This document shows, in pieces, positions 11,772 to 52,740 of a stretch of DNA of 64,000 nt. The position numbers and the translations under genes are program-made. Below the pieces are notes generated by a model. It was not told the origin of the DNA, searched no databases, and saw nothing but the letters and a program-made list of their open reading frames with translations. The DNA is from Deltaproteobacteria bacterium GWA2_45_12 (GTDB lineage Bacteria; UBA10199), in the NCBI GenBank assembly GCA_001797365.1, contig MGPH01000030.1, positions 1,963 to 65,962 of the forward strand. The letters are read 5' to 3'. Position 1 is the stretch's first letter; each line of letters begins with the position of its first letter.

Positions 11772-13343
11772 ATGAAATTTATTGGATACTTTTTATCTTT
11801 TATATTTGTCTTTGTGTTGATGGCTTGCGGTTCTGGCTCAGACAGTAGCAGCGACTCATCAAGCAGTGATGATAACGATCTGGCTGAATCAGCTTATCCC
11901 AGTGGTCTGGCCGTATCTTCTCCTTACTCAAGCTCTGATACAGAAACCAATATTTCGGCATTGGTTATGGCTGCTGTTGGTGATGAGGGGAACGTGACAG
12001 GCCTTCCCTATGAAGAGAAATTGGCCGCCTTGGATGCGGTTGTTAATGGAACAAGTATGAGTGATTGTTTTAATTATGATGCAGATTTGTTCCCGGATGA
12101 GCCCACGGTTTCATGTTATGGACCAGATCTGACATTAAGCGGAACCCATCCTAATGGGGGATTTTCTGGCGGTGGAAGTCAGGGTCTTCCCTCGGGGGAT
12201 CTTGGGCTTTGGGAAGCCAGTGAAGATGGTGGGGAGGCTTGCATTGCTTCCAAGGTGAATTCTGAAATGACGAGTGTTGAAGGACGCATGGATTTTTCGA
12301 TGTTTGCCATGGCCTCTGCTTTTTGTGTGGCCAATAATAACGGGGATACCTTGCCTGCCGTGGGGGGGACTCTTGATCTTTCAACAGCCTTTACTGATGC
12401 TGCCGAGGCTGCCGATTTTACAGGTTTTGATCCCACAACGGTTGTCTTGACCCGCGGGACTGATACCGATGATGGGAATGCCGTTTACACGCTCAACATC
12501 ACCGGTGAAATTGTCAATGAGGATGAAACAACCATGCCCTTTGCCTTGGAAATGACCCATGTTCCTTTGGATGCCACCAATTCGACCTATCAGGGGCTCA
12601 TGCAAGCCACCATTGAAACCAGTGATATTCCCACCTCCAATTGTGGTGCAGGAACTCATACCGTGGGGATGTCGGCTCTTTATGAATTGGCAGCCAGTAC
12701 TGATTTAAGAGTGCAATACAAACAGGCTGTTTTTTGCACCACAGGGGCGACCGATGAGGATATTTTTGATGATGAAGGGGAGGCGGATGCCACTCATAAA
12801 AAGAGTGGGGAATGTTCCGGTGAAACAGGGGTTACCTACAGTGCCACGGGTTGGGGCGATGATTATAATTATCTCCTCATTAATACGGATCCCACGACAG
12901 GATATGGGAACCTTGTTTATGGTTGGCAGGCAGGACGCTGCGATCAAAATACACGCGTCTTCAAGGCTTCCATCAGTGCCGATGGCGGTACAGATAGCAA
13001 TGAAGGAGGCTGCGGCTATTTCGGTTTTGGTGCGGATATTTCGCAAGCAACTCCCGATATCGATGGGATGATTTGTAACTGGACGGGGCCGGGCAGTGGT
13101 GGTTTTGGAAGTCATACGGTCCAGGATTTGGTTCAACGTCAATGTGTTTCACGGGCCAGTGTTACAGACGATTTTGCATCGGTGGCTGCCACTTTGAATA
13201 TTGACTATGCTCCGACCAATAACTGTAATTCAGACGGCTCTCTGTTATGTGATGGAGTGGCTTGCGTGACCACCAATGATCTGTTAGACATCGCTGAAAT
13301 GGATTTTACCGATCCAACAGCCCCCACAGCCCTTGATATTTAA
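11772..13343 (+). CDS. acidic Cys-rich lipoprotein of unknown function
   Basis: 523 aa; signal peptide plus lipobox VLMAC-G; Ser/Asp-rich linker; 22 Cys and many Gly/Asp/Thr; no recognisable catalytic motif. Confidence 0.6.
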   Translation: MKFIGYFLSFIFVFVLMACGSGSDSSSDSSSSDDNDLAESAYPSGLAVSSPYSSSDTETNISALVMAAVGDEGNVTGLPYEEKLAALDAVVNGTSMSDCFNYDADLFPDEPTVSCYGPDLTLSGTHPNGGFSGGGSQGLPSGDLGLWEASEDGGEACIASKVNSEMTSVEGRMDFSMFAMASAFCVANNNGDTLPAVGGTLDLSTAFTDAAEAADFTGFDPTTVVLTRGTDTDDGNAVYTLNITGEIVNEDETTMPFALEMTHVPLDATNSTYQGLMQATIETSDIPTSNCGAGTHTVGMSALYELAASTDLRVQYKQAVFCTTGATDEDIFDDEGEADATHKKSGECSGETGVTYSATGWGDDYNYLLINTDPTTGYGNLVYGWQAGRCDQNTRVFKASISADGGTDSNEGGCGYFGFGADISQATPDIDGMICNWTGPGSGGFGSHTVQDLVQRQCVSRASVTDDFASVAATLNIDYAPTNNCNSDGSLLCDGVACVTTNDLLDIAEMDFTDPTAPTALDI

Positions 13344-15765: not shown

Positions 15766-18700
15766 TTGGGTGGAAGTGATGGGATGACTATGGCTCCCCT
15801 TAAAGATATTCTTTACACGATAAAAAATCCTCAACAGCTCGGCTCGAGCGATCTTCTATGCGCTCCTCCTCCTGGCTCTGATGTGTTTAATCAATCTCCT
15901 TGTACGGTTAGTTCTTTTTCTGCTGAAACGGTGAGCCAGAAAGCGATGAAGAGTGGTTTGATTAGCCCTGATCAAGGTATGGCTTTTAAAAACAGGCTGA
16001 AAGCCTATTTTCGAGAAAATCTTAAAGACACCCAAGTTGATACTCTCGAAGAATATAGTGCGATCTCCAATCTAAACCTTCTTGCCTACCGTCATACCTT
16101 AGAAACAGTTTTTCGCGATAGGAACAATTGGGCGACCTGTTCGGTTCAAGAAGGAATAGCTCTTAAAAGTGCCCTCATGGACAGTGACCTTTATAGGAAA
16201 GTGGCGAATAAAGAAGGAGCTAAATTACTTCATGAACTCGACAATCTTCCATGGGGTGTATTGGCTGAGGAATCCGTTTTTAAACATTGGGTGAATACTT
16301 ATCAGGATAATACTTTCATCAATCTTCTCTTTCACGCGGCAAAGGCAGAGTATCCCGTTGACAAAGCACTGGTCAAATTAATGAAGGAAAAACCAGAGCG
16401 GATGGACCCCATGGATTTTGCTTCCATCCTTCCTTTGAATCTTGCTTCGGTGAATGAATATATCCTTGGAAACGGTGGTCATCCTCCTGAAATTTACAAA
16501 GATCTTCTTGAAAAGGCGCGGGATGATGAAGGCTTCATGAGTTACAGTGCCATTTTAACTTACGGCCTCAACCATGCGCATCCGGAGGCTTTGAGGGAAG
16601 CCAAAGAAATCATCCTTTTTGATTTCCATCATATTTTTGTGCATTTGAGTTCGGATGCAAAAATAGCCCTGAGAATCCTTCTTATACCGCCCCAGGCAAG
16701 GCCAGCTCAAGTCCCTCAATTCTTTGCCGAGGACTTAGAACAGATTCAAGCGGAAGTTCAAAAAGCCTTGCCCGATGTTTATAGGCAAGACAATAATCAC
16801 GCCGCCGAGCTTTTAATCCTCTTTTTGTTGGGATTCGGGGATGAAGATGTTTTTCACGGGGATTGCTGGGAACATCTCGTTTCCATGGAGACCAAGAGAA
16901 AGGGCGATTTTGAGAAGGCCAAAAAAGAATTTGTACCCCTTAGTTTTCAAAGTATCGTGACTGCCATTATGTTTCCCGAGGATGATGCCCTTGATAAGAA
17001 GGCCGCTGTGAAGGCGCTCGTGGTTGCTGCCAAATTGTGGAACCGCGAAGAAAAAGAAAATCCCTGGCCTTATGAGGCTCCTCTGATGCGTCTTCAGGAA
17101 ATCATTAACAAGAGGGGAAATGTCACATTGGAAGCAATGCAGGCCCTCTACAATGTACTGATCGTTAGGAAAGAAGAAGACGAAGAGGTGGAAGCTCAAG
17201 TTCAGCAGAGAAGGGATTTTGCCTTTAAATTTTTTGATAAAGGGATGGAGGCTCAAAAACTAGCTTCTTTTTTTGAAACTTATCTCCAAGATTTTAATAA
17301 TCAAGGCAAGGATGAAGAACTCGATAAATTAATGGGGAATCTTCTTCTCCCTGAAAACAATGCATCCCCAATCTCGCCGCCGGAGCTTCAAAAAACCTAC
17401 GATCTTTTGTGTCTTTTTGCCGGATCACAAACTATGACCCTGGCTGAAAAAGCCATTCCTCTCTTGGTTAAATTAGAGAATCATTCTCTTTATCAACAGA
17501 ACGAAAATTCCCCGATCCAAGTATTAAAACAAATTGTTTTGGACAAAAAGGCAGCTCATCAAGAAGCGTGGGATGCTTTGGCCGGCCTTGTTCTTAAGGA
17601 TAAAAAGCCCGTGGTTTTAGAGGATGAGAAGAAGAAAAAATATATAGGGAATATCGCTGCCATTGCCGGGCCCGAAGAGCAATATTGGGATAATGGTCAT
17701 GTGCTGGATGCTGCTCAGGTTCTTTTGGATTTAGAAAAGAAAACCCACGATGAATTCATTCATCAAACTTTGGTAAGCTTGGATACGGGGGCGTTGGAGA
17801 GTTTGGTGGGGGATTATGCACCTTCTCAGGAGGATACTATGAAGATATTCCATCAGCTCATGGAGCGATGGAAGACGAATCCACCCAAGCATTTTATGAT
17901 TACAGACGATTCGGTATCTGATGGAAAAACTTCTTCTATTAACTTTGCCGCAATCATAGGGCAGGCTAATACGCAAAATCTTGGGATGATTAATGAACTG
18001 ACTCAAAATTTTTCTGACGGTGAAAGAAGAAGAACTCAACAGCGTACTGGGCTTAATCAGGTAGAAATTCCTTCGATTGTTGAAGCTTCTGAAGATACTT
18101 CGGATGCTGAAATCGATGAAAATAAGGGAGATGAAAAAGTATCAGATCCTCTTCAAGCTCTCTCGGATCTGGCCAAGCTTGGGAATGTTTCGGCCTTTGA
18201 ATTCATCCTTGGGCGTTTTCAAAAAGGCGATATTTCCATGGTGAAACCCTTAAAAAATATTTTAAATGATGATGATGCTTCAGAATTTCATTCCAAAATA
18301 ATCGATACGGCGAGGGAGACTTGTCTTCAATTTACGGACCCTGCTTCTAAGAGAGCATCCTTTGATCTCTTAATTGTGGCCGCCGAAAAAGAAAGACCCG
18401 GTTGCTGGGAAGCCTTGTTTCTATCGGCAACGGAACATTTTGAGCTGAGCGTTTCTTGGGAAGGATTGGCCAAGGAGGCCGCTATGGCTTTGCTTAGCAT
18501 GGGAAGTGGCACAGACCCCGAGCAAGTCGATGCGCTTCGCGAATTGGATATTTATCTCGCTTCTCTTGTAGGGTCTTCGGAAATGGCGACGGGTGAATAT
18601 GATCCTCTTCTCGACGATTTTCTGACTTATCCCCATTCCTCTCAATTAATGGAGTTGGAAGCGGCCCTTGAGAAATATAGAGAGAATAGGACCAAACCGC

Positions 18701-42128: not shown

Positions 42129-42200
42129 GTAATCACTTTTCTTGAAAAAGGCCCATAAAAAATTAGACAAATAGTGATTCTTGCTTTATCTTTTCGGGCT

Positions 42201-44399
42201 ATGACAAAAAAAATCCATTTTTTAATCATTTCCTTTTTCTTTCTCACCCTCTTTTTTAATCCATCATACGCCCAGGAACAGGGTCAGCCAAAAACAGATC
42301 TTCTTTTCATTATTGATTCCTCCGGAAGCATGGCCTCCCTTCTTGAAGGGCAGCGCATGATTGACTGGGCCAAAAAGGCTGTGAAAAGTGCCGCAGCCCA
42401 ACTGCCGCCCGAGGCTTACGCAGGACTTCGTGTTTATTCCCACCGTATCGATAAAAGTAACAAGGAAGCTAGTTGCAAGGATACGGAATTAGTTGTTCCC
42501 ATTTCTTCAGGAACAGGTTCGCTGATTGCGGCCTCTGCCGACAAGCTTGAGCCCCGCGGATGGACACCTATTGCCTATACTCTTTCGCAGGTGGAAGCCG
42601 ACTTTAACCAGAATGTCGAAAAACTTCATACCATTATCCTGGTCAGTGATGGGGAGGAAACCTGCGGCGGCGATCCGGCTGCGGTCATGCGCGCTTTGGT
42701 GGCCAAAGGGTATAAATTCAAGCTCTGCACGGTAGGGTTTAATGTGGAGGATGTGGCCAAACAACAACTCATGGCCTTAGCCAGCGAATTTGGCTGCACT
42801 TACACCGATGTTCGTAGCGGTATGTCGTTGGAGCAGGAATTGGCCAAGCTGACACAGCAAAGTTTTCTCATTGAAAAGAAGGTGAACCCAAAAAATCAAA
42901 TACGCGGTGGAGACAGTTTTAATGATGCCGTCCCCATTGAAACCAACAAGAGATACAGCCTGGACCATCATCAAAGGAAGGATCAATACGATTATTTTTC
43001 GTTTAAACTAAAGCAAGGTGAGGCCGTCTCTCTCCGAGTTTTCCCGGTTGAAAAATGCCTGGATGTCGTCGGGGATCAGGCGACAGAGCGCGCCAGCAGT
43101 TCGTGCGACTACGATGGGCTGCGGTATGTGTTGATGGATGGGCAGCAAAAAGAATTGGAGAGGTTGTCATTTTTCCTCGTCAACAAGCAGCATGAAACCG
43201 ATTTCTATACTTCTTCAGCACCAGGAGAGACCCTCTACTATCTCATCATTGGTAGCCCCTATGATGAAATGCATAAAGATCATGAATTCATCCTGACGAC
43301 CAAGCAGGGTACTTATACAGTGACGGGGTCATTGGGGGACGCCAATACGAATAATGATGCAGGGGATAATTTTTCTACCGCCATTGTTCTGTCTCCAGGC
43401 ATTTATGAAAACAACAGTGTTTCCAAAATGGATCAAGTGGACGTCTTTAAGGTGGTTTTGAAGGAACCTTCTTTGGTAAAACTTGTCGGTACCCATGTGA
43501 AAAAATCGGATTATGCGGATATTGATTTTGAGATTTTGGATGAATTAGGGGCCGTTCTTGGTAGCCAGGACCTTAGCGAAGGCAATTCCTATTCATTCCA
43601 GCCTCAAAGTCCGTTATCGGGCGCTATCTATCTGCGGGTCAAAATCGATTCCGTCATTGTGGATTCGGATACGGTCAATTATTCAATGGGTGTGTCGGTA
43701 AGCCCTGCACCGGTGGAGTTGATCGCAAAAGCCGTCGAAAAAACGCCTCCTCAAAAATCATCGGTGGAAGAAGTGGATGAAATGGAAGAGGTGGTTTTGG
43801 ATATAGTGCCATCCCCTCAAAAATTTACTCTGTGGCTGGGATTGGTTGCCTTGGCCTTTGCGCTGTTTGCTGGCCTGTATGTATTTTTCTTTGTGGTACG
43901 CAAAAAGGTCGCCGTGGATTTGTTCTCAAAAATTTTAGGGTGGTATGAGATCTTTGCCAGCATTATCGGCATGGGCACGGCTATTTGGCTAGCCACCAAG
44001 CAGCCTTCGCTTGCCTGGCAGATCGTGCTTTTGGTGATGCTTGGAGGCGTTGGTCTGCTTGGCATTATCGCCGGTGGAAATCTCTTATTGAACAAGGGGA
44101 GCAAACTTAGTTTTATTTGGGGAGGCCTCCAAGCCCCCTGGATTTACCTAAACCTTCATTGGGTGGTGGTGAAATATAGTCTTTCCTTGTTTTGGGGCCT
44201 GCCTGTTTACTTCTTCTTTGAAACGTCCCAAAACCCTATCGTCAATGTCCAGTCCAAAATGCATCTCGGGGCCCTATTTGGCTTATGGGCGCAATTCCTT
44301 TTCCCGGGAAGGGGCATGGGGATTGGTCTGGGCGTCAATCTGGCCGCGGTCCTGTTTTTGGGATTGTTGTATTTGAACCAGAGAAAAAAGACGAATTAA
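42201..44399 (+). CDS. von Willebrand factor A domain protein with a C-terminal polytopic membrane region
   Basis: Signal peptide; MIDAS DSSGS (FIIDSSGSM); about 6 predicted C-terminal TM helices. The start is taken at MTKKIHF (42201). Confidence 0.65.
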   Translation: MTKKIHFLIISFFFLTLFFNPSYAQEQGQPKTDLLFIIDSSGSMASLLEGQRMIDWAKKAVKSAAAQLPPEAYAGLRVYSHRIDKSNKEASCKDTELVVPISSGTGSLIAASADKLEPRGWTPIAYTLSQVEADFNQNVEKLHTIILVSDGEETCGGDPAAVMRALVAKGYKFKLCTVGFNVEDVAKQQLMALASEFGCTYTDVRSGMSLEQELAKLTQQSFLIEKKVNPKNQIRGGDSFNDAVPIETNKRYSLDHHQRKDQYDYFSFKLKQGEAVSLRVFPVEKCLDVVGDQATERASSSCDYDGLRYVLMDGQQKELERLSFFLVNKQHETDFYTSSAPGETLYYLIIGSPYDEMHKDHEFILTTKQGTYTVTGSLGDANTNNDAGDNFSTAIVLSPGIYENNSVSKMDQVDVFKVVLKEPSLVKLVGTHVKKSDYADIDFEILDELGAVLGSQDLSEGNSYSFQPQSPLSGAIYLRVKIDSVIVDSDTVNYSMGVSVSPAPVELIAKAVEKTPPQKSSVEEVDEMEEVVLDIVPSPQKFTLWLGLVALAFALFAGLYVFFFVVRKKVAVDLFSKILGWYEIFASIIGMGTAIWLATKQPSLAWQIVLLVMLGGVGLLGIIAGGNLLLNKGSKLSFIWGGLQAPWIYLNLHWVVVKYSLSLFWGLPVYFFFETSQNPIVNVQSKMHLGALFGLWAQFLFPGRGMGIGLGVNLAAVLFLGLLYLNQRKKTN

Positions 44400-46840
44400 A
44401 CTTCATATCCATCCCTACGCATGATTTCGGCGCGGATGATTAAATAGTCATAAAGGAATCGTCTTACTCGTTCCAGCCTTGATTCTATATCTATATCAAG
44501 CATGGGTATAAAAATTGAACTCAGTATGTCAGGAGTGTAATCAGGAACCTCACCATAGTAAACATAGGCCACAAGAATCATTTCCAACCAAAAACTATCT
44601 TCTCGGGGATAAATAAATTTTCCTTCTTTGACATCGTGTACCTTTTCATAACGATCACCGTTAAAGAATTTAAACAAGGCCGCTTCGGTTTTTTCGTTCA
44701 AAAGGGAATAATATTCAGATTGTTCAGGTGGAATGTGTTCCAAACCTTCCGGCCCCAGGGGGGTAAAATGCCACGGATAGGCAATGTTCCTGCCTTCTTC
44801 GGGGATGTATTTTTCAAGAAACTCGTCTTTTCGGGTGAGGTAGTAAAACAAAAAGAATTTGCTTTCATCCGACCACGCATAACCATCGAGTACTTTTCTT
44901 GCTAGATCCAAAGACAATTCAACCTTATCATCACTTCCCCGAGTGTGTAGCCATAGCAGCGTGGCTCCCAACCGTGGCGGCATCGCATCAAGGGGTTTAA
45001 TGTTCAATAGCTTTGCCATTAATCCCAAAAGACCCATGAATTCGTGCAATACTTCAAGCTTTTGATCGTTGCTCCATTGCGTATCTTTCAACACTGCCTT
45101 GGCTCGGCCCTCGAAAAGTAAGTTTTCAACGGCATCAACTAATTTTAAATCACCAAAATCTTCAAAGACGACTCGCGCTATGTTAAGACCCTTAGCATCA
45201 TGTATGCTCTTACGCCCTTGGTAGAAAGCGTGGGCTCTTTCATTGGCTTCTAAGACTTCGGCAATCGCCGAAGTTCTATCGAGCCTTCTTGTCGCCATTT
45301 CTTCAAGTTCGGTAAGATAGCGTTTATAAGCCTCGATGAGTGCCAATGTTTCTTGAACTGTTGGGGTTGGTTTTGCCTTGTCCTCGTTGGGAATTAAAAA
45401 AGCATATTTTTTTCTGAAGAGGGCGAGGGCTCTTTGGGAAAACTCCCTGTATTCGGGGGTTATTTCCAGGATGGGGTCTGGGTCTCGTGCTATTGATTCT
45501 GCATTTCTAACAAAACGAATCTCAACTGAGTCCCATTTACGCGGCGCTCGTAAGGTTGGACCATTTCTCCAAACCCCACTTTCTGTTCCCCAGATAAGAC
45601 AAAGGGAATGAAAAATTCTTGCACGTACCGTCTTATAAAATTCATCTTCATGCCCTTCGATTTTTTTGGTGCCATCGACATCCAAATTTACAAAACGACC
45701 ATCATCAGTGATGAGATACGTATTGTATTTCATGTCCTCCATGCGGTAGCCTTTTTCGGCCAATTCTTCGTACATGCGCATGGCCGTGCGTGCGTATCCG
45801 ATTCGTTTTGATGGATGTTGAAATAAAGGCCTGAGTCCTTGGGGATTGCCTAATGGTTTCATGGAATCATAACGATAATGATCCCCAAAATACCACCCAG
45901 TCACGTATTCCATCAAATAGGCGTTGTGGGCCACAAATTGCCTTTTCACAACTCCTGTTACGCCTTCAAGAAGAGGCAAGCTTTCCCGAAAGACGTGCTC
46001 CCAACCGGCTTTAAACAGCTTCAAGCAGATGGGCTTGCCTTGTTCGTCGCGCAATAAATAAACATTTGCCGATGCCCCATCTCCCAAAATTTTTTCCACA
46101 GTATAGATTGTTTCATTCAATAAACAGGACCTTCCTATTTGTACGGTCAGTTTGGAAACGATGTAAGCATTTCTTGCTATGGGTTTATGGGGCACCTCAC
46201 TTGGTGTAAGTATTTGGCCCTGTTTTAATATTCTTAAATAAAGAAAATCTCCTTCAATGATAGGACCTTTAATAGCATTTGTTGCTAACAGGGAATAAAC
46301 ATCCGAGGTGGGGTCACTTTCAATGCGGCTCGTAACGACATAGGTAACCCTGCCTATGGTGATCGTTGTTCCTAGACTAATGGGTGGTAAATCCCTGGTT
46401 AGATCTTCATCGACTATTACAGCACTTCCGGAACCACCTTCTGAAACAGTTAGGCTTCCCACTTGAGCTCGATGATCGCCCGGTGGATCGGAAGCACCCA
46501 TCATCTGCGGTCTTCTTAAGGGCAGCGTGCCTAATTCTTCTATAGCTCGAGTTGGTACTTTTTGTTCTAGGCCCGTTAGTTCTAAGCTTAAGGGCAGGGC
46601 CATGGCCGATGCGGCTTCTGCGAGCGTTTTAAAACGTGTGGGGGGAGTAAGCCTGAGGGCTAAAGGAACGGGGGCCAAAGAGCCATCATCGTACCCGTCT
46701 TTTGTATGTGATTTTGGGGTTGATGAGGGGGCATTTTTGGGATGTACCCGTGGTGCCCCGCTTACCCCAAGCCTGAAAGGGCCGCCCGGCATGGGGCGGA
46801 GGGGTATTGTTCTGGGAGTAAAAGAGAGAAGCTTGCTCAT
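44396..46840 (-). CDS. 814 aa protein with a divergent eukaryotic-like Ser/Thr kinase fold and a Pro-rich N-terminus
   Basis: Gly-loop LGDGASANVY, Lys motif ICLKLFK, Glu in FRESLPLLEG, hinge LMEYVTG, a catalytic-loop-like YRMEDMKYNTYLI (D-x-K-x-N) and DVDG in place of DFG. Its stop overlaps the stop of the convergent VWA gene. Confidence 0.5.
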   Translation of the reverse strand: MSKLLSFTPRTIPLRPMPGGPFRLGVSGAPRVHPKNAPSSTPKSHTKDGYDDGSLAPVPLALRLTPPTRFKTLAEAASAMALPLSLELTGLEQKVPTRAIEELGTLPLRRPQMMGASDPPGDHRAQVGSLTVSEGGSGSAVIVDEDLTRDLPPISLGTTITIGRVTYVVTSRIESDPTSDVYSLLATNAIKGPIIEGDFLYLRILKQGQILTPSEVPHKPIARNAYIVSKLTVQIGRSCLLNETIYTVEKILGDGASANVYLLRDEQGKPICLKLFKAGWEHVFRESLPLLEGVTGVVKRQFVAHNAYLMEYVTGWYFGDHYRYDSMKPLGNPQGLRPLFQHPSKRIGYARTAMRMYEELAEKGYRMEDMKYNTYLITDDGRFVNLDVDGTKKIEGHEDEFYKTVRARIFHSLCLIWGTESGVWRNGPTLRAPRKWDSVEIRFVRNAESIARDPDPILEITPEYREFSQRALALFRKKYAFLIPNEDKAKPTPTVQETLALIEAYKRYLTELEEMATRRLDRTSAIAEVLEANERAHAFYQGRKSIHDAKGLNIARVVFEDFGDLKLVDAVENLLFEGRAKAVLKDTQWSNDQKLEVLHEFMGLLGLMAKLLNIKPLDAMPPRLGATLLWLHTRGSDDKVELSLDLARKVLDGYAWSDESKFFLFYYLTRKDEFLEKYIPEEGRNIAYPWHFTPLGPEGLEHIPPEQSEYYSLLNEKTEAALFKFFNGDRYEKVHDVKEGKFIYPREDSFWLEMILVAYVYYGEVPDYTPDILSSIFIPMLDIDIESRLERVRRFLYDYLIIRAEIMRRDGYEV

Positions 46841-46947
46841 CTATGGGTTATTTCGGTCATTTTTAAGAAAAGTTGTGGAGTTTTATGGAGTGGTTTATGG
46901 GGTAGAGACGAATGTTGGTGGGAAGTTTTGAGGTGGGGGCTATAGGT

Positions 46948-48732
46948 TTATTTTACCGACCATCCATTGGCTTCGCATATTTCAACATATGCTTCGGCAA
47001 TGCATTGAGTGCGCTCCTTAGCCGCCCGTTCAGCTTCTTTTCCTTGGTGTGCAAATCGATCGGGATGGTTTTCTTGCATCAATCGTAGAAAGGTTTTTTT
47101 AATGTCTGCTTGGGACGCGTCCCTGGCAATACCCAAAACGTAATAATAGGGATCTAGGTCTTTCCTTGTAGGCCTTTGATGGGTCTTTTTCCCTTGCTGG
47201 TTCGGCCCTCTTGCCTCTTGCTGTCCTGTTGTCTGTGGCGTGGGAATTTTAAAAGCTTTCGCTTTTCCAAATTTAACCCATGTTCCCGGTCCGACATACA
47301 CCTGACGATCAGAGCTTTTTAAAACCTCGATCCGGCCTCCAGGATGAAAAATATAAATAACCTTCCCACTCCCATCATGGGTTTCACTACTGATTCTAAG
47401 GTTAAAACCTTCTTTTTCTCGTTTCACTTGAAAATGAACTCCGCCATCATAATGTAATCCGTGGGAATGAGGGTAGATGTATCGATCAAAATCACTGAGC
47501 GATCTTAACCAAGCAGGCATGTTTCGAATGGGGAATCCAAATTGTATGAGTTGCCCCCCTATTTTATAAATCCGCCCCAATCGCAAGAAAACGGTTTCTC
47601 CTGCTGGTACTTGTCGTTTACTTCCACTATCAAAAACTTCTAATTCACCCTTTTCCAGACGAATCCCGAGGCCTTTGCCATTTTCTGGACTGTAGAAGAA
47701 TTCATAAGTCGATCCTCCGATGCTTTTTTTGAAAGGTGTATGGGGTTGATCATAGGCGTAAATGAGCCATCCCGTCATCCAAAGTGGCATGAGGGATATG
47801 GGGTTGATGAAACGATAGTATTGGCCGGGGCCATATTGGATGAGGTCCCCATCCACAAGAATATGTGTGGGCTTTTCTGCATTTAATGCGCGACGGTCAC
47901 GGTTGTTAATAACATGGAGTGGTTCACCATTTTTCCATGTCAACACAGGGTTGCTTTCAGCATCGTAGGAGATGCTTCCTTGTGAGGGGCCAGCATCAAT
48001 AGCTACAGATGCTTTGTTGTCAACGGCGGCTCCAATAAGAGCTGCCCCCATCGCTTCAGGCATTTCATCAAAGGGTTTGGTGAATTTGAAATATTGTTTG
48101 CCTATCTTAATGACCGCATCAAAAGGAATGCATTCTTCTTTTCCGGGTTTTAGTAAAACAGGTTCTTCCCCATCACGTAAAATGACCATGTCATAATAAT
48201 CCACCGTGAGGGTATTTCCTGTAGGTTGCCCATTGATCAGGCTATAGCCCCTTCCTGCTTGATACCGAATTCCATAATAGGGTTTTTCGTTAAATCCTCC
48301 TACCCTTTGACCCGGATTGCTCACAGCTTTTACACAGCTTTCAATGAAATAACTCGGCATGGGTTGGATTAATCTCTTATAGAGGAAAAATTTTCTATTC
48401 CCCATTTTGACCGAATCTCCTTCTTGGAGGACCTCTTTTTTACCAGAGGAATTCAGAACGATTTTTGTTTTATTCTCCTTTTTGACAATGACGATGGCCT
48501 CTCCTCCGGTCCATTCAAGAGTGAGCGCCCAAGGGTCTTCTTGGGTTACCTTTGCCTGAGCATGACCTATGTTAATGGTGGTTCCTTCAGGTTTTAAAAG
48601 AGTGGTGGCCAAAGCAATTTCTTCGGACTGGTTCATTTTTTCAAAGGGGCTACGAAACACAAAGGGAGGTTCATGGCCAAGGGTGATGATATCCCCATCT
48701 TTAAGTACAAGCTTCTGATCTCTAGAGTCCAA
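46948..48732 (-). CDS. C-terminal fragment: six degenerate FHA-like repeats + DnaJ J-domain (HPD)
   Basis: Repeat ends DIITLGHEPPFVF, DSVKMGNRKFFLY, DAVIKIGKQYFKF, DLIQYGPGQYYRFI, RIYKIGGQLIQFGF and TWVKFGKAKAFKI. J-domain DPYYYVLGIARDASQADIKKTFLRLMQENHPDRF...KEAE...EAY. Confidence 0.6.
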   Translation of the reverse strand: MDSRDQKLVLKDGDIITLGHEPPFVFRSPFEKMNQSEEIALATTLLKPEGTTINIGHAQAKVTQEDPWALTLEWTGGEAIVIVKKENKTKIVLNSSGKKEVLQEGDSVKMGNRKFFLYKRLIQPMPSYFIESCVKAVSNPGQRVGGFNEKPYYGIRYQAGRGYSLINGQPTGNTLTVDYYDMVILRDGEEPVLLKPGKEECIPFDAVIKIGKQYFKFTKPFDEMPEAMGAALIGAAVDNKASVAIDAGPSQGSISYDAESNPVLTWKNGEPLHVINNRDRRALNAEKPTHILVDGDLIQYGPGQYYRFINPISLMPLWMTGWLIYAYDQPHTPFKKSIGGSTYEFFYSPENGKGLGIRLEKGELEVFDSGSKRQVPAGETVFLRLGRIYKIGGQLIQFGFPIRNMPAWLRSLSDFDRYIYPHSHGLHYDGGVHFQVKREKEGFNLRISSETHDGSGKVIYIFHPGGRIEVLKSSDRQVYVGPGTWVKFGKAKAFKIPTPQTTGQQEARGPNQQGKKTHQRPTRKDLDPYYYVLGIARDASQADIKKTFLRLMQENHPDRFAHQGKEAERAAKERTQCIAEAYVEICEANGWSVK

Positions 48733-48751
48733 ACGAGTTATAGTATCTCCT

Positions 48752-50188
48752 TAAATCCGGCGTGAATGGTGTAGGGAATGCCTCCTTTGCTCAACACTGA
48801 CAGGCATTATAGAGTTTTTTGTGGCTAGTATTGAACCTAACTTTTAGTTAGCTTCAATACATGCGTTCTGGGGCTCGAAAAATCCGTACAAAATTCACCG
48901 CGTCTGGCCTCACTCATTTCGGTGGAATTTATCTCTTTCATAAATTTCTCCAGCAACTAAAAATACGATCCTGCTTCTTCCGACACCTGTCTTATTCTCA
49001 GAGAAACAATCAGTATTCTTTGAGCGAAATGATTTTGGCTTTGATTTATCCAATGATTCTTGGTTTGGAAAAAATCGAAGTGTCTTCTCTTCTGAAAACA
49101 AATGGCGTCTTTCATTTTCTGACTGGGCTCCCAACCTTTCCCGATCCTCAAACATTGCGCCGATTTTTGGTGAGGTCATCGACGGAACTGCTGCCGTCAC
49201 TTTGGAAAGTCCACAATGATCTCAAAAAATATTTCATCCTTCAATCTTCTACCCTCTCAAGTTTCTGTTTTGATTTTGATTCCACCGCGAAGACTCTCTA
49301 CGGAAAACAGGAAGGCGTGGTCAAAGGTTACAACCCCGGACATCCAGGAAGAAAATCCTATCACCCGCTGGTCGTCTCAGAAAGTTCTCTCAAGGATTGT
49401 CTGGGTGGATTTTTAAGGCCGGGGAACGCTTACACCTCAGATGGTGTGGTTGATCTTTTTCAACAAGCCCGTTCTATTCTGCCAACTTCCATCCGCTTGC
49501 GCACCCGTGCCGATTCAGGGTTTTATGATGGTTCTTTTGTCCGGACGCTGGACGAAAATCACGTGAAGTTTGCCATTGTTGCCAAGACATCTTCTCCTCT
49601 GAAGAAACTTTTTCTTTCGGCCCGCTATCAAAGAATCAACGACCGATTCTCAACCTCCGAGCTTTTGTATCAACCCGGCAAATGGAAAAAACCTTATCGC
49701 TATGTCGTCTTGAGAAGGATCGTTGATCCGGAAGACGACGGACTCACTCTTTTTACCTTGGACCGATATGCCTACTCGATGATCGTCACCAATCTCGATA
49801 TCACACCCTACGGAGTCTTCGATTTTTATAAAGCTCGAGCCGGGTTGGAAAGGATTATCCGGATTTTGAAAAACGACTTTCCTTTTGCCGGAGCGCCGAC
49901 CAATCATTTTTGTGCGAATGCTCTCTACGCGGAACTTTCTCTTTTGGCGTACAATCTCGTCATGTGGTTCAAGCGACTTTGTCTGCCGGGTGATTGGCAA
50001 TCCTTCACGTTGGAATCACTTCGGCACAAATTATTGCTGATGCCGGGAGAGTTGGTGCATACCGGAAATATTCACACACTCAAATTTCCGAGAAACAGTC
50101 CCAACAAGGATGTCTTTGAATTTGCTCTGAAGAAAATTAAAACGATGGACTCGCTGGTCTGAAAAATGGTGTTTTCACGCCGGATTTA
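48752..50188 (+). mobile_element. IS1380-family insertion sequence (~1.44 kb) with 15 bp perfect TIRs TAAATCCGGCGTGAA and a 9 bp direct repeat GTATCTCCT
   Basis: Left IR 48752-48766; right IR 50174-50188 (reverse complement identical). Direct repeats at 48743-48751 and 50190-50198; on the right a single G (50189) separates the IR from the repeat. Confidence 0.8.
48861..50162 (+). CDS. IS1380-family DDE transposase
   Basis: 433 aa; VKGYNPGHPGRKSYHPLVV matches the GYNP...Y.P hallmark of IS1380/ISEcp1-type transposases. RADSGFYDGSFV carries the second catalytic Asp. Confidence 0.85.
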   Translation: MRSGARKIRTKFTASGLTHFGGIYLFHKFLQQLKIRSCFFRHLSYSQRNNQYSLSEMILALIYPMILGLEKIEVSSLLKTNGVFHFLTGLPTFPDPQTLRRFLVRSSTELLPSLWKVHNDLKKYFILQSSTLSSFCFDFDSTAKTLYGKQEGVVKGYNPGHPGRKSYHPLVVSESSLKDCLGGFLRPGNAYTSDGVVDLFQQARSILPTSIRLRTRADSGFYDGSFVRTLDENHVKFAIVAKTSSPLKKLFLSARYQRINDRFSTSELLYQPGKWKKPYRYVVLRRIVDPEDDGLTLFTLDRYAYSMIVTNLDITPYGVFDFYKARAGLERIIRILKNDFPFAGAPTNHFCANALYAELSLLAYNLVMWFKRLCLPGDWQSFTLESLRHKLLLMPGELVHTGNIHTLKFPRNSPNKDVFEFALKKIKTMDSLV

Positions 50189-50851
50189 GGTATCTCCTCT
50201 CTTAACTTCAATGGGCAGTCCCCATACATGATAGGTGATTGTTACTTCATCAAAATAAACAGATCCTTGGAGTTTATATTGGTTGTGGAGACGGTATTGC
50301 CCCTCCTGTCCATGATTCACTTCGACAGAAAATCCCTCATTCATAAAAGTCCGGAAAACTCCCGCTTCAAAGATTGCTGGCATTTCCTCGCTGGGTGGTA
50401 CCGCAGCGGGAACAATAGCTGGAGGCGGTTCAGGAGCTGGAGGCGGAGGAACGGCACGAGCAGATCCACCCGAATCTTGAGCCACATGATGGCGAAAAGG
50501 AGTTTGCAGTCGATAACCCGGATTTGTAGTTCTTCGACCCGATCCATCGTTGGAAGCCATTTCGGGAAACAGAGCTCTGACCCCATCTTCTCTTAAACTT
50601 GGAAGTTGTTGCCCTTTCAAAACAAATTCATCCCTTCCATCAGAAGGGGCCCCCACAGCCAGTCGACGATTTTCTCGAGAACGTGAGACAGGTTGAGGAG
50701 GTTGAAGATCAGCTGGAGATGAAGATGGAGACAAATGAGGTCGCAAAGATGCGCCCGGTTTAGTTCCCCTAACGCGAGGGAAGGGGCCCCATCCTACGGG
50801 ACGAACACTGGGGCGAAAAGGCAGCACATTATTGGTACGAAAGATGGCCAT
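50186..50851 (-). CDS. N-terminal fragment of the interrupted gene (Pro-rich, 221 aa)
   Basis: AGGAGG lies 4 nt upstream of the ATG at 50849-51; PPPPAPEPPPAIVPAAVPP low-complexity segment. Confidence 0.6.
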   Translation of the reverse strand: MAIFRTNNVLPFRPSVRPVGWGPFPRVRGTKPGASLRPHLSPSSSPADLQPPQPVSRSRENRRLAVGAPSDGRDEFVLKGQQLPSLREDGVRALFPEMASNDGSGRRTTNPGYRLQTPFRHHVAQDSGGSARAVPPPPAPEPPPAIVPAAVPPSEEMPAIFEAGVFRTFMNEGFSVEVNHGQEGQYRLHNQYKLQGSVYFDEVTITYHVWGLPIEVKRGDT

Positions 50852-50925
50852 GCCCTCCTAGCTTCGGCTTTTTTCAAAATAAGTTGTTTGGGGTAGAACT
50901 TCATTTTACGCGTGGTGTCAAAGCT

Positions 50926-52740
50926 TTAGGAAGGTCTTTCTTGGAGGGCTCTTTGCAGACCTTCTATTCCCTGAGCCATCATGCTTTTAACAAAGTCATT
51001 AGAAGAGCCTTTTTTTCTGAACACAATAGCTGAAGCCCCTTGTGGAGAAGCATTCAGGTCGTTATCTATTTCCAAACCCAGTGTCTGCATTAAGTTTGCA
51101 TCCGGGCTATAGGGAAGAAGACTTCCTAACATGTTCGGAACAATGGTGGGCCCATTTCGTGGATCCGTAAATAAATAACCCTCTGGCACAAGAGCATCAA
51201 CAATTCGAATAAGGGTGAGCAGGCTAAAAATCCTGTCCCTCCGATCGCCATCGAGATAATCCTGAACAGGATGGAAGTAAGCCCCATGCATGGGAGGAAA
51301 TTCAACAGGGGTCACCACATAATCTCCCCTGGGTTGGAGTGTTATCCTTTTTTTAAGAGAATCACCGGGAATCCTTAGTGTAGCGACCGCAGCGGCTTTT
51401 TTTCCATGCCCCCTCATCCAAGTGACCCCTCTAACAGGAGTGGCTGAGGTACTCGAAATGAACGCCTCATAGGCTTTTCTTTCGGCCCTCACTTCCTCCC
51501 GCCACCGTGCCCCATAGGCTTGCCAAAACATCTGAGCGATTTCGGGATCATCAGGATAGAGTTCATAGGGGACCCAACTTAAAAAAACGGTAAGGGTACC
51601 ATCAAACTCATCAATGAGCTTAAGTGGTTCTGGTTCATCATTATAAACAAGGACGCGCATTTTTGGATCCAGACTCGCTAAAAGAAAGGGCTCATAAGTA
51701 GCATAGAGGGTACGTCCATTAGGATGATCAAATTTTAAATATCCAGGGCCAAAATTACCAAAAACGATTTCCTGATAGCGTTCCCTTAAACGAGGAATGA
51801 TGTTTTCCCTTAAATAAATCCATTCGGCAGCTCGTCGCGCAAACGTGGTGAAGTTGCGTATGATTCTGATGTCATCCCTGGTGCGACCGCGGTTCTCTCT
51901 GGCTTCCCTTAAAGAAGGAGTCGCATGGACGACGCCCTCTGGTCCCATAGCCAAGCGTGCTTGCGTCGCTCGATATACATTATCAGCTGTAACAATTCGA
52001 GAAACCCGTTCCATTTCAGCTCGGACGGAATCTGGTAGAGGTTCGACAGGAGTCACTGCGCCCACTTCCATTTCATCGGCAAGGGATGGGATATGGGCTA
52101 AAATCAACCCTTCTACATGGGCCGGGTCTGCTAAAAAATTTTCTGCACCAGCACCCAATTTTTTTACAAATTCTAAAACTCGTTCGATAACGAGGGCACG
52201 ATTAGCAGCTACTATCGTGGGGTCCCGGTCCAGGGCCAAAGCCAGTGAGGCACGTTCGCTTATGCTACTCATGCGAGCCATAAAATCAGGGTTTGAAAGG
52301 ATGCGAGTCACAACTTCTTTACTCTTTATAGCAATACCTTGATCAGGACTTATTGATGAATCTGCAGGCCGATCACTGCTGGCGGCTTTCCATCCCTCAT
52401 GATGATGCCCCACTAAATTCCCATGCCCATCGTATTGGGGAACCCACAAGGGAGCACGAAGGGAAGGAGTGTGTAAGCTTATGTCTGGAAAGGGAGTGGT
52501 TCTATTCCAATATCGATCTTTCCCGATGTCTGGCGCTAGTGAGCTATTTGTATGAAGCAAATCACCTGGTTTTAAGCTTACCTTTGCAACACTTTTTGAA
52601 CGAGAAGGAGGTGGAATAACGGGATGTGGTGTTGGCCTTAATACAAGGCTTCCGGGTACAATACGTGCACCAGAAAAAGATCGAAGGGGTCTATAGAAGG
52701 ATGGCGGACTCATAAATAAATGATAGTTGATCTTCGGCAA
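50926..52740 (-). CDS. 604 aa hypothetical protein (Pro-rich N-terminus; no known domain)
   Basis: The ORF-track start is TTG; the first ATG is at codon 10. It is in frame with, and separated by a single TGA from, the upstream squalene/phytoene-synthase-family ORF. Confidence 0.5.
   Translation of the reverse strand: MPKINYHLFMSPPSFYRPLRSFSGARIVPGSLVLRPTPHPVIPPPSRSKSVAKVSLKPGDLLHTNSSLAPDIGKDRYWNRTTPFPDISLHTPSLRAPLWVPQYDGHGNLVGHHHEGWKAASSDRPADSSISPDQGIAIKSKEVVTRILSNPDFMARMSSISERASLALALDRDPTIVAANRALVIERVLEFVKKLGAGAENFLADPAHVEGLILAHIPSLADEMEVGAVTPVEPLPDSVRAEMERVSRIVTADNVYRATQARLAMGPEGVVHATPSLREARENRGRTRDDIRIIRNFTTFARRAAEWIYLRENIIPRLRERYQEIVFGNFGPGYLKFDHPNGRTLYATYEPFLLASLDPKMRVLVYNDEPEPLKLIDEFDGTLTVFLSWVPYELYPDDPEIAQMFWQAYGARWREEVRAERKAYEAFISSTSATPVRGVTWMRGHGKKAAAVATLRIPGDSLKKRITLQPRGDYVVTPVEFPPMHGAYFHPVQDYLDGDRRDRIFSLLTLIRIVDALVPEGYLFTDPRNGPTIVPNMLGSLLPYSPDANLMQTLGLEIDNDLNASPQGASAIVFRKKGSSNDFVKSMMAQGIEGLQRALQERPS

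Follow-up and report, generated by a model that had tools for sequence, protein, structure and literature searches.

Three co-oriented coding units, here called genes A, B and C, span positions 44396-52740 on the minus strand of the window, the whole 64-kb stretch of DNA that was analysed. The source is an uncultivated groundwater organism, Deltaproteobacteria bacterium GWA2_45_12, represented by a metagenome-assembled genome (MAG). According to the list of open reading frames (ORFs), genes A and B are separated by exactly 74 nt (50852-50925) and genes B and C by exactly 107 nt (46841-46947), which bears out the co-oriented block with short gaps in a preliminary description of this DNA. Gene A (50926..52740) codes for 604 aa from a TTG at 52740, or for 595 aa from an alternative ATG at 52713, which is the start used in the JGI and ENA gene calls, while gene C (44396..46840) codes for 814 aa. 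The middle gene is not intact, being split by an insertion sequence into ORFs of 221 aa and 594 aa; the element had been noticed, but not that it interrupts the FHA/J gene itself. The cluster is flanked by housekeeping genes, with leuCD and a squalene-synthase-like gene upstream and a convergent VWA gene downstream, the latter overlapping the stop of gene C by 4 nt.

Gene B starts with an ATG at 50851 that is preceded by an AGGAGG ribosome-binding site. Its 5' part (50198..50851, minus strand) covers a Pro/Arg-rich disordered tail (approximately residues 1-160), followed by one half of an FHA-like repeat, R1, and the 221-aa frame (50186-50851) ends at a TAA supplied by the insertion sequence (50186-50188). 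The in-frame continuation (46948..48750, minus strand) encodes the second half of R1, repeats R2 to R6, a linker and a J-domain, and can be called as a 594-aa ORF from a TTG at 48732 (46948-48732). In between, in the middle of R1, lies an insertion sequence of 1439 bp on the plus strand (48751..50189), with a full-length tnpA gene of 433 aa (48861-50162), perfect 15-bp terminal inverted repeats (48752-48766 and 50174-50188) and a perfect 8-bp duplication of the target site, GTATCTCC, on its two sides (48743-48750 and 50190-50197). The transposase matched the NCBIfam model NF033539 over its full length with 254 bits (cut-off 180) and the Pfam model DDE_Tnp_1_4 at 2.3e-53. The element thus has the DDE transposase, inverted repeats and target-site duplication of the IS1380 family, to which it had been assigned on first inspection. 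This family includes ISEcp1 and typically produces target-site duplications of 4-5 bp; the likeness extends to the single-ORF transposase, the short terminal inverted repeats and the presence of a duplication, but the 8 bp observed here exceed the typical length. The 64-kb window contained no second copy of the element, and excision in silico of the element together with one copy of GTATCTCC restored a single in-frame gene B ORF of 818 aa.

The junction between truncated gene B and the insertion sequence recurs in 11 contigs, the 8 listed being from 8 different samples or assemblies, and public data contained no allele other than the disrupted one. The insertion is apparently recent. Since none of the assemblies seen has an uninterrupted gene B, any module that it forms with its neighbours is dispensable at present, and since this is the sole public allele, the module proposed below is probably non-functional as it stands in GWA2_45_12, that is, insertionally inactivated and either inactive or decaying today. 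In the sampled populations the putative adaptor gene is interrupted, with polar effects on gene C being likely. That the disruption is shared by all public assemblies and shows no trace of counter-selection could also mean that the three genes have no functional connection, being orphans that evolve fast or decay, and that the adjacency of kinase, FHA and J genes is coincidental, an alternative that we consider unlikely but deserving of serious attention. It has to be reconciled with the facts that both halves of gene B are still open and that all catalytic residues of C have been kept, so that any decay would be recent at most.

The C-terminal J-domain of B (46951..47157, minus strand, residues ~750-818) matched the Pfam model DnaJ (PF00226) with an E-value of 1.1e-9 and 38.7 bits (cut-off 27.8), and its residues 780-782 (47059-47067) form the HPD motif, confirming the canonical DnaJ J-domain that had been noted before. 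The motif is preceded by a basic stretch, KKTFLRL, and searches against the PDB retrieved J-domains, including that of E. coli DnaJ, at 5.7e-8 to 1e-5. The best NCBIfam match of B was to the J-domain end of DjlA (NF006948, E 1.6e-13). With class III (type C) J-proteins such as DjlA, B shares the C-terminal position of a J-domain with intact HPD, and also the logic that a specialised non-J region picks the client or location while the J-domain recruits DnaK. Unlike in DjlA, the targeting region is an array of FHA-fold domains, with no transmembrane domain at the N-terminus. We rejected B as a DjlA equivalog, its score of 50.9 bits being below the cut-off of 162, with a match confined to the J-domain end and no counterpart of the N-terminal transmembrane domain. 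B is a class-III-style J-domain co-chaperone, the non-J part of which begins with the disordered tail rich in Pro and Arg and continues as a row of six degenerate repeats with the FHA fold. A limited search of the literature retrieved no description of a bacterial J-protein with an FHA-fold array.

Five of the repeats follow each other without interruption (47200..48618, minus strand): R2 (48340-48618), R3 (48040-48339), R4 (47770-48039), R5 (47485-47769) and R6 (47200-47484), while R1 is divided by the insertion sequence (48619-48750 plus 50198-50374, minus strand). Every repeat closes with the motif L-x-(D/E)-G-D-x-(I/V)-x-x-G-x3-F-x-F-x2-P-x3-M-P, and each was detected by an HMM made from the remaining five, with scores that were reached by none of 3000 shuffled controls for R1-R4, by 5 of 3000 for R5 and by 1 of 3000 for R6. 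In an AF2 model of R2 (pLDDT 72, pTM 0.60), the repeats are predicted to adopt the 11-stranded beta-sandwich of the FHA fold, an assignment based on this one moderate-confidence model and an alignment of 6 rows; the FHA-like beta modules previously perceived in the middle gene are thereby upheld, in six copies. The Pfam models FHA (PF00498) and Yop-YscD_cpl gave no match to the repeats even at an E-value of 10, and the sole FHA match of the repeat profile in the PDB was the FHA domain of KIF1A (E 1.3).

The repeats do not carry the set of pThr-binding residues (Gly-Arg, Ser-x-x-His and an Asn in beta6-beta7). The Gly-Arg of the beta3-beta4 loop is found in none of the six, the residue after the aligned Gly being H, H, G, P, G and G, and the Ser-x-x-His (beta4-beta5) is missing from five, being present only in R6. 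The absence of these canonical residues weakens the earlier suggestion that the repeats are phospho-Thr readers, and binding may instead be phospho-independent or occur via a non-canonical surface. Degenerate, phospho-independent FHA-like domains occur in secretion machines (the cytoplasmic domain of YscD/EscD in type III systems, CT664 of Chlamydia and the N-terminal domains of EssC/YukB in type VII systems), where they form the N-terminus of membrane-embedded components. By contrast, B has no transmembrane segment, six copies of the domain, a terminal J-domain and no secretion gene nearby.

Gene C encodes, on the minus strand, a Pro-rich disordered tail (residues 1-125, 46466-46840), a beta-rich region with two IGR motifs (residues 126-235, 46136-46465), an ePK-like kinase core (residues ~236-440, 45521-46135) and a conserved helical C-terminal domain with no assigned fold (residues 441-814, 44399-45520). 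The core contains a G-loop, LGDGASANVY (252-261), the beta-3 Lys274, the alpha-C Glu286, a hinge, YLMEYVTG (308-315), a catalytic loop, D369-M-K371-Y-N373, and a DFG equivalent, D387-V-D389, none of which varies among the three members of the family. Departures from the standard pattern are the replacement of the third Gly of the G-loop (after G253-x-G255) by Ala, M-E in the place of the HR of HRD, a catalytic-loop Asn at +4 rather than +5, and D-V-D in the place of D-F-G. C alone had no match in Pfam and only one at E 0.09 in NCBIfam, while its homologues P0005 and P0004 matched Pfam Pkinase (PF00069) at 5.7e-5 and 2.8e-3, both below threshold. A profile of the three-member family matched PKA in the PDB at E 1.5e-7, in an alignment that takes in the G-loop, the VAIK Lys, the hinge, the catalytic loop and the DFG Asp; 813 PDB chains were below E 10 and all among the 60 listed were protein kinases. 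The divergent kinase fold of the preliminary description therefore stands on the family profile and not on Pfam or NCBIfam, with membership at the superfamily or fold level, short of the Pfam gathering score. As judged from the sequence, C belongs to the Hanks/ePK-type protein kinases, as a very divergent member with all catalytic residues.

Kinase-containing defence systems exist, and the G-loop region of C gave a very weak NCBIfam match to the MADS kinase MAD6 (E 0.089), as might be expected if the kinase were a sensor or effector in an anti-phage or other conflict system. However, that match comprises about 40 residues of generic kinase motif (11 bits, where the cut-off is 460), PADLOC yielded no match at E 1 for any of the four ORFs, the PHROG matches were limited to the J-domain and the neighbouring genes matched housekeeping-type Pfam families only. 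We regard a defence role as very improbable.

When 1.84 billion representative sequences were searched exhaustively with phmmer, only two relatives of C emerged: the C-terminal part of a 4998-aa protein encoded by the same MAG, and a 354-aa fragment on a 1.7-kb contig. In the 4998-aa protein, Pfam models for PP2C and for a methyltransferase domain matched below threshold, and hydrophobic stretches resemble membrane anchors on reading. No homologue of A or B was present within ~6.7 kb downstream of its gene, which counts against a functional link of C with A and B. A preprint reports a connection between giant proteins and a predatory way of life (bioRxiv 10.1101/2023.11.21.568195). This link, together with the recurrence of the kinase and helical module at the C-terminal "warhead position" of a giant protein with PP2C/methyltransferase matches and anchor-like stretches, would fit a scheme in which A, B and C are not components of internal signalling but effectors, translocated to or delivered at the surface against another cell (prey, host or competitor). 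The kinase, J-domain and Pro-rich motifs would then manipulate a foreign proteome, with the disordered N-termini acting as export or docking signals. The same scheme would account for the eukaryote-like domains (ePK, FHA, J and PxxP-rich tails), the extreme orphan status of all three proteins, a pattern of fast-evolving conflict or effector genes, and their mildly raised rare-codon use and mildly low GC3. It is nevertheless an unlikely one in our judgement: A, B and C have no Sec signal and no predicted transmembrane segment, and are thus predicted to be soluble, no secretion-system genes were found among those annotated within +/-10 kb of the cluster, and matches in phage, plasmid and defence-system libraries were limited to those of the J-domain in PHROGs.

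Nor do the N-terminal tails look like a shared export signal, since their likeness is mostly compositional: local alignments among the tails of A, B and C were matched or beaten by 412, 68 and 18 of 500 shuffles. Over the first 80 residues, A, B and C each have a Pro fraction of 0.16, while two of the other ORFs in the window reach 0.12 or more. In A, the first ~120 residues are rich in Pro, Ser and Arg and the remainder is predicted to be mixed alpha/beta; a single-sequence AF2 model was unusable (pLDDT 35). Gene A yielded no matches in Pfam, NCBIfam, PADLOC, PHROGs, the PDB, plasmids, phages or a JGI metagenome scan, and its designation as an orphan is thus maintained.

Scans for promoters and terminators at the locus gave results at chance level only, so that an operon of A, B and C is not demonstrated, as would be expected if the adjacency were coincidental. 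Short gaps, a common strand and a tail composition that is otherwise rare in the window argue against coincidence. The A-B-C order was not seen conserved anywhere searched, which also fits coincidence; since the searches made retrieved no relative of A or of B, a conserved order cannot be shown. In the gene-order comparison, B and C gave self matches only, and A was unmatched in JGI metagenomes, plasmids and phages. In the genome collection, the VWA neighbour was unmatched and the best matches of LeuC were at 68-72% in mixed phyla, indicating that this collection includes neither the MAG nor any close relative of it. A, B and C are best regarded as an accessory cluster restricted to the single lineage in which they were seen.

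Genes for FHA-fold proteins and for Hanks-type kinases are each uncommon in bacteria and are well known to accompany one another in genomes, for which reason C and B are most likely a signalling/adaptor pair; rare and equally divergent kinase and FHA genes are unlikely to lie side by side by chance. The established example is the mycobacterial PknB/FhaA/GarA type, from which the pair differs in that B and C are below every Pfam kinase and FHA threshold, in that B has six tandem repeats rather than one or two, lacks the canonical pThr-binding Arg/Ser/His and is fused to a J-domain, and in that the cluster contains no PP2C phosphatase, a sub-threshold PP2C match being found in the 4998-aa paralogue. 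The common strand, short gaps and common Pro-rich N-termini favour a link among A, B and C. In the mechanism that we propose, the FHA array of B would bind one or more partner proteins, candidates being the substrates of C, among them the N-terminal tails of A, B and C themselves, which are rich in Ser, Thr and Pro. The HPD J-domain would stimulate ATP hydrolysis by DnaK and the bound partner would be loaded onto Hsp70, for its remodelling, assembly or disassembly. We have high confidence in the domain-level description of kinase fold, FHA-fold repeats, J-domain and IS interruption, and put forward the functional link with its kinase/adaptor/Hsp70 mechanism tentatively, as having somewhat less than an even chance. 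A stricter version, in which C marks clients (possibly A or the common Ser/Thr/Pro-rich tails) and B reads the marks multivalently and passes the client to DnaK, is rather improbable. The combination of a kinase with a six-FHA J-protein is unusual, and if this version were true it would represent an undescribed coupling of Ser/Thr phosphorylation to Hsp70, a phospho-addressed chaperone adaptor, into which the sister kinase module on the 4998-aa protein may also feed.

The base composition of the block is that of its surroundings. GC contents in 1-kb windows were 0.426-0.477, as in the rest of the window, and the per-gene values were 0.449, 0.441 and 0.469 compared to 0.450 +/- 0.027 for core genes; only the 221-aa Pro-rich fragment of B reached 0.50. 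The local GC content of about 50-52% against 45% in the flanks, previously given for the block, was therefore not reproduced (44-47%, equal to the flanks), and the compositionally atypical island is not supported either; no tRNA gene was present in the 64-kb window and no direct repeats flanked the block. A horizontally acquired genomic island likewise found no support, the only mobility gene being that of the insertion sequence inside gene B. The atypical codon usage was retained in part: GC3 is 0.33-0.41 in the block genes against 0.467 +/- 0.043, with AGR and ATA codons raised in C and A, but these mild deviations are not specific to the block. The orphan gene at 15766-19197 displays the same trend, which is hence no specific evidence of horizontal transfer, and the presence of this and another large orphan with the same trend (11772-13343) in the window is in keeping with a coincidental adjacency of A, B and C.

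Between positions 44396 and 52740, the minus strand contains four long ORFs and the plus strand a single transposase gene. The minus-strand ORFs are gene A (50926-52740, 604 aa), an ORF of 221 aa (50186-50851), an ORF of 594 aa (46948-48732) and gene C (44396-46840, 814 aa), and the ORF coordinates show that the gaps of 74 and 107 nt quoted in the preliminary description are exact. The transposase (48861-50162, plus strand, 433 aa) is a full-length member of the IS1380 family (NCBIfam NF033539, 254 bits versus a cut-off of 180; Pfam DDE_Tnp_1_4, 2.3e-53). Its 1439 bp element (48751-50189) has perfect 15 bp terminal inverted repeats at 48752-48766 and 50174-50188 and sits between the two copies (48743-48750 and 50190-50197) of a perfect direct duplication, GTATCTCC. 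This target duplication is 8 bp long, whereas 4-5 bp is usual for the IS1380 family. No second copy of the element was found in the 64-kb window. Deletion of the element and one copy of the duplication joins GAGTCCAAACGAGTTATAGTATCTCC directly to TCTCTTAACTTCAATGGGCAGTCCC and brings the ORFs of 221 and 594 aa into one reading frame for a protein of 818 aa, showing that what had been described as the middle gene is one cut gene, here called B. The cut falls within the first internal repeat of B, the 221-aa product stops at a TAA within the terminus of the element, and an AGGAGG ribosome-binding site precedes the start of B (ATG at 50851).

The truncated 221-aa product followed by the transposase was recovered from 11 contigs, all with the same insertion at the junction; the 8 shown represent 8 different samples or assemblies. 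The junction look-up can recover disrupted alleles only, and the inference of a sole allele relies mainly on a search of the reconstructed 818-aa protein against 5.8 billion protein clusters. Since the only match was the cluster of the 594-aa fragment, the disrupted allele is the only one in public data. The disruption looks recent, because both halves of B are still open and the element is pristine, yet this is the sole allele seen. The three genes are probably inactive as a module in the sampled populations, given that the element interrupts B and, within the presumed transcription unit, precedes C.

Exact-protein look-ups found the locus in 'Deltaproteobacteria bacterium GWA2_45_12' (contigs from Rifle groundwater, ANAN16 assemblies). 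Further contigs with it come from a second TPA assembly, GCA_003501025.1, from a JGI metagenome and from several assemblies in ENA and Logan. This MAG and its close relatives are absent from the set of 185,579 species genomes, and the best matches to LeuC (54755-56179) in the genome collection were only 59-72% identical and came from unrelated phyla (Kiritimatiellia, Paenibacillus, Acidobacteriota and Thaumarchaeota). Judging from these comparisons, the lineage is deep-branching or poorly sampled and the NCBI label 'Deltaproteobacteria' is uninformative.

The last ~70 residues of B form the canonical J-domain proposed for it earlier (Pfam, 38.7 bits versus a threshold of 27.8), with the HPD motif at residues 780-782 and PDB matches to the J-domains of E. 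coli, Thermus and human proteins. It is not an equivalog of DjlA (50.9 versus 162 bits). Residues 160-735 consist of six repeats of ~95 residues (R1-R6), each ending in L-x-(D/E)-G-D-x-I-x-x-G-x3-F-x-F-x2-P-x3-M-P. The repeats are too divergent for BLAST, and their alignment was too degenerate to serve as a query in the metagenome scan. HMMs of any five repeats recognised the one left out, at scores that were reached by none of 3000 shuffles for R1-R4, by 5 of 3000 for R5 and by 1 of 3000 for R6. No FHA profile matched them, and Pfam searches with single repeats and sub-regions at E 10 returned only noise (Vault_2, 0.23; Big_11, 0.0044). The preliminary description had taken the repeats for readers of phosphothreonine. 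The FHA fold was upheld, but the phosphothreonine-contacting Arg after the beta3-beta4 Gly is absent from all six repeats (the residues there are H, H, G, P, G and G) and Ser-x-x-His is present in R6 only. The repeats are degenerate FHA modules. Their fold is like that of the FHA-like domains in YscD, EssC and CT664, which are phospho-independent, but B is a predicted soluble protein without a transmembrane segment.

The kinase in C was not recognised in Pfam and NCBIfam scans. Just two relatives, P0004 (39% identity, E 7.8e-70) and P0005 (354 aa, E 3e-4), emerged when 1.84 billion representatives were searched exhaustively with phmmer. Word-index protein searches with C, the reconstructed B and the kinase-family alignment gave self matches only, and AlphaFold was therefore run without a deep alignment. 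P0004 clusters at 90% identity with P0006, a protein of 4998 aa from the same MAG (A2048_02715), in which the ~530 residues homologous to C constitute the extreme C-terminus; when metagenomes were scanned with the kinase alignment, the only gene retrieved was again the giant one of this MAG, 100% identical to P0006. This connects C, a stand-alone kinase, with the module at the C-terminus of a giant protein. Searched individually, P0005 and P0004 produced sub-threshold matches to Pfam Pkinase (5.7e-5 and 2.8e-3; profile positions 1-148). A three-member profile of the kinase region matched the PKA catalytic subunit in the PDB with an E value of 1.5e-7 (813 chains below E 10), in an alignment that extends from the Gly-rich loop to slightly past the DFG position. 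Invariant in the family are G253 and G255 of the Gly-rich loop, K274, E286, D369-x-K371 and D387, while at position 373 C shares Asn with the giant paralogue and P0005 has Asp. The kinase fold suspected earlier is borne out by these results, and because the family-invariant residues are exactly the catalytic ones, C is an ePK-fold enzyme and probably active. Departures from the consensus are M-E-D for H-R-D, Asn at +4 and D-V-D for D-F-G.

A phmmer match of C to designer pentatricopeptide proteins in the PDB (E 5.6e-8) was rejected as a repeat artefact: one stretch of 29 residues (348-376) aligns in turn with all ten identical designed repeats, and no single domain is significant. In the remainder of C, residues 126-235 are rich in beta structure and contain two 'IGR' motifs, and the helical C-terminal domain of ~370 residues is 33% identical to that of the giant paralogue and had no match in the PDB when searched as a profile. 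The ORF of the giant protein lies at L084:2-11545 (contig Ga0154362_131), with 3847 of its 4998 aa within this locus. The kinase and helical domain of C have their paralogous counterpart in its last ~530 residues (33-39% identity), and further upstream it matches PP2C/SpoIIE and a small methyltransferase domain in Pfam, below the thresholds. By reading, hydrophobic stretches of the GLAVLLGALG type were noted between Pro-rich linkers.

Gene A had no match in Pfam, NCBIfam, PADLOC, PHROGs or the PDB, none in tblastn searches of plasmids and phages, and none in the JGI metagenome scan; a single-sequence AF2 model of residues 121-604 was unusable (pLDDT 35). A is an orphan, although its status is less firmly established than that of C. 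All three proteins begin with 120-160 residues rich in Pro, Ser and Arg (A 52740-52380, B 50851-50372, C 46840-46466; residues 1-125 in the case of C), which are probably disordered. Pro makes up 14-16% of the first 120 residues and a fraction of 0.16 of the first 80 in A, B and C, and only two other ORFs in the window reach 0.12. A shared N-terminal signal was rejected, as BLAST and shuffling indicated that the similarity of the tails is largely compositional: the observed alignment score was reached in 412 of 500 shuffles for A/B, 68 of 500 for A/C and 18 of 500 for B/C, so that only B/C is marginal. A motif defined post hoc, RP-x(2-6)-G-[PAG]-[FR], occurs at residues 15-17 of A, B and C (RPLRSFSGAR, RPVGWGPF, RPMPGGPF) and in no other ORF of the window; its statistics are weak.

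A, B and C could also be a set of effectors aimed at other cells, since all three are orphans, their domains are eukaryote-like and the kinase module recurs as the C-terminal end of the protein of 4998 aa, which has sub-threshold PP2C and methyltransferase matches. However, neither a Sec signal nor a transmembrane segment was found in the three proteins and no secretion gene was found within 10 kb on either side, and we consider such a role rather improbable. That the genes constitute a defence system is highly improbable: PADLOC gave no match, and the viral scan, tblastn against plasmids and phages, and PHROGs returned nothing except matches to the J-domain.

Whereas the folds, the catalytic residues, the HPD motif, the IS interruption and the physical linkage are demonstrated, how the proteins work together is inferred. 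FHA proteins commonly partner with Hanks-type kinases, and both are rare. The adjacency of C and B, which are equally divergent, is more likely to be functional than accidental, and we favour a kinase/adaptor pair. A chance juxtaposition of decaying orphans, with which the tolerated disruption and the failure to find conservation would agree, seems unlikely against this adjacency. In the kinase/adaptor pair, the FHA array of B would bind partner proteins, either substrates of C or the Ser/Thr/Pro-rich tails, and the J-domain would then trigger ATP hydrolysis by DnaK, loading the partner onto Hsp70. Since the pockets of the repeats are degenerate, this binding may be phospho-independent.

All parts of the block belong to known superfamilies (ePK kinase, FHA fold, J-domain, IS1380), and none fits a curated family below that level: the Pfam thresholds for kinase and FHA were not reached and B is not a DjlA equivalog. 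A limited literature search revealed no described system with six FHA-fold repeats and a C-terminal J-domain beside a kinase. We rate the three genes as akin to Ser/Thr-kinase/FHA signalling and class-III J-proteins rather than categorically new; the remote-homology result is solid and the architecture unusual. If the proposed link is true, it would represent a new J-domain co-chaperone architecture, with an FHA-fold array as client selector, and a new output of bacterial Ser/Thr kinases in the form of Hsp70 recruitment. The practical weight is limited by the single uncultivated lineage and the IS-broken state of the central gene in all data. More generally, ePK, FHA and J folds can hide in 'hypothetical' proteins under Pfam-level annotation.

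The block had been presented as a compositionally atypical island of 50-52% GC, which the data do not bear out. The GC content of 1-kb windows across it is 0.426-0.477, like the rest of the window. Gene by gene, the values are 0.449 (C), 0.441 (3' part of B) and 0.469 (A), and 43 other ORFs have 0.450 +/- 0.027; a GC content of 0.50 is found in the Pro-rich fragment of 221 aa alone. The claim of unusual codon usage survives in part: GC3 is 0.33-0.41 versus 0.467 +/- 0.043, and AGA/AGG and ATA are elevated in C and A, but import is not thereby proven, because an unrelated orphan of 1143 aa (15766-19197) has the same signature (GC3 0.393, AGR 0.57). We read it as typical for poorly expressed, fast-evolving genes here. 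GC2 is raised in the block genes, reflecting their Pro/Arg/Gly/Ala content. There is no tRNA in the window, and no direct repeats flanking the block were found.

Both flanks of the block consist of housekeeping genes. One carries mreC, rodA, hpt and the genes for PBP2, citrate synthase and a VWA protein, the other a squalene-synthase-like gene with leuD and leuC. The stop of C overlaps by 4 nt (44396-44399) that of the convergent gene for the VWA-domain membrane protein (741 aa, 42174-44399), leaving no space for a terminator between them. This neighbour had no match in the genome collection, and promoter and terminator scans of the locus gave results at chance level. Elsewhere in the window, the 1143-aa orphan (plus strand) is a helical protein without a Pfam family, with low-GC3, AGR-rich codons as in the block, and a Ser/Asp/Gly/Thr-rich protein of 523 aa (11772-13343, plus strand), also without a Pfam family, has a lipoprotein-like N-terminus (...LMACGSGS). 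A patatin-like phospholipase (20745-22121, minus strand; Pfam Patatin, E 2.4e-25) is surrounded by housekeeping genes and is the only other protein in the annotated part of the window from a class often used in cell-cell interaction. A RES-domain protein is encoded at 24915-25805 on the plus strand (Pfam RES, E 1.7e-11); this domain is the toxin type of RES-Xre toxin-antitoxin pairs.
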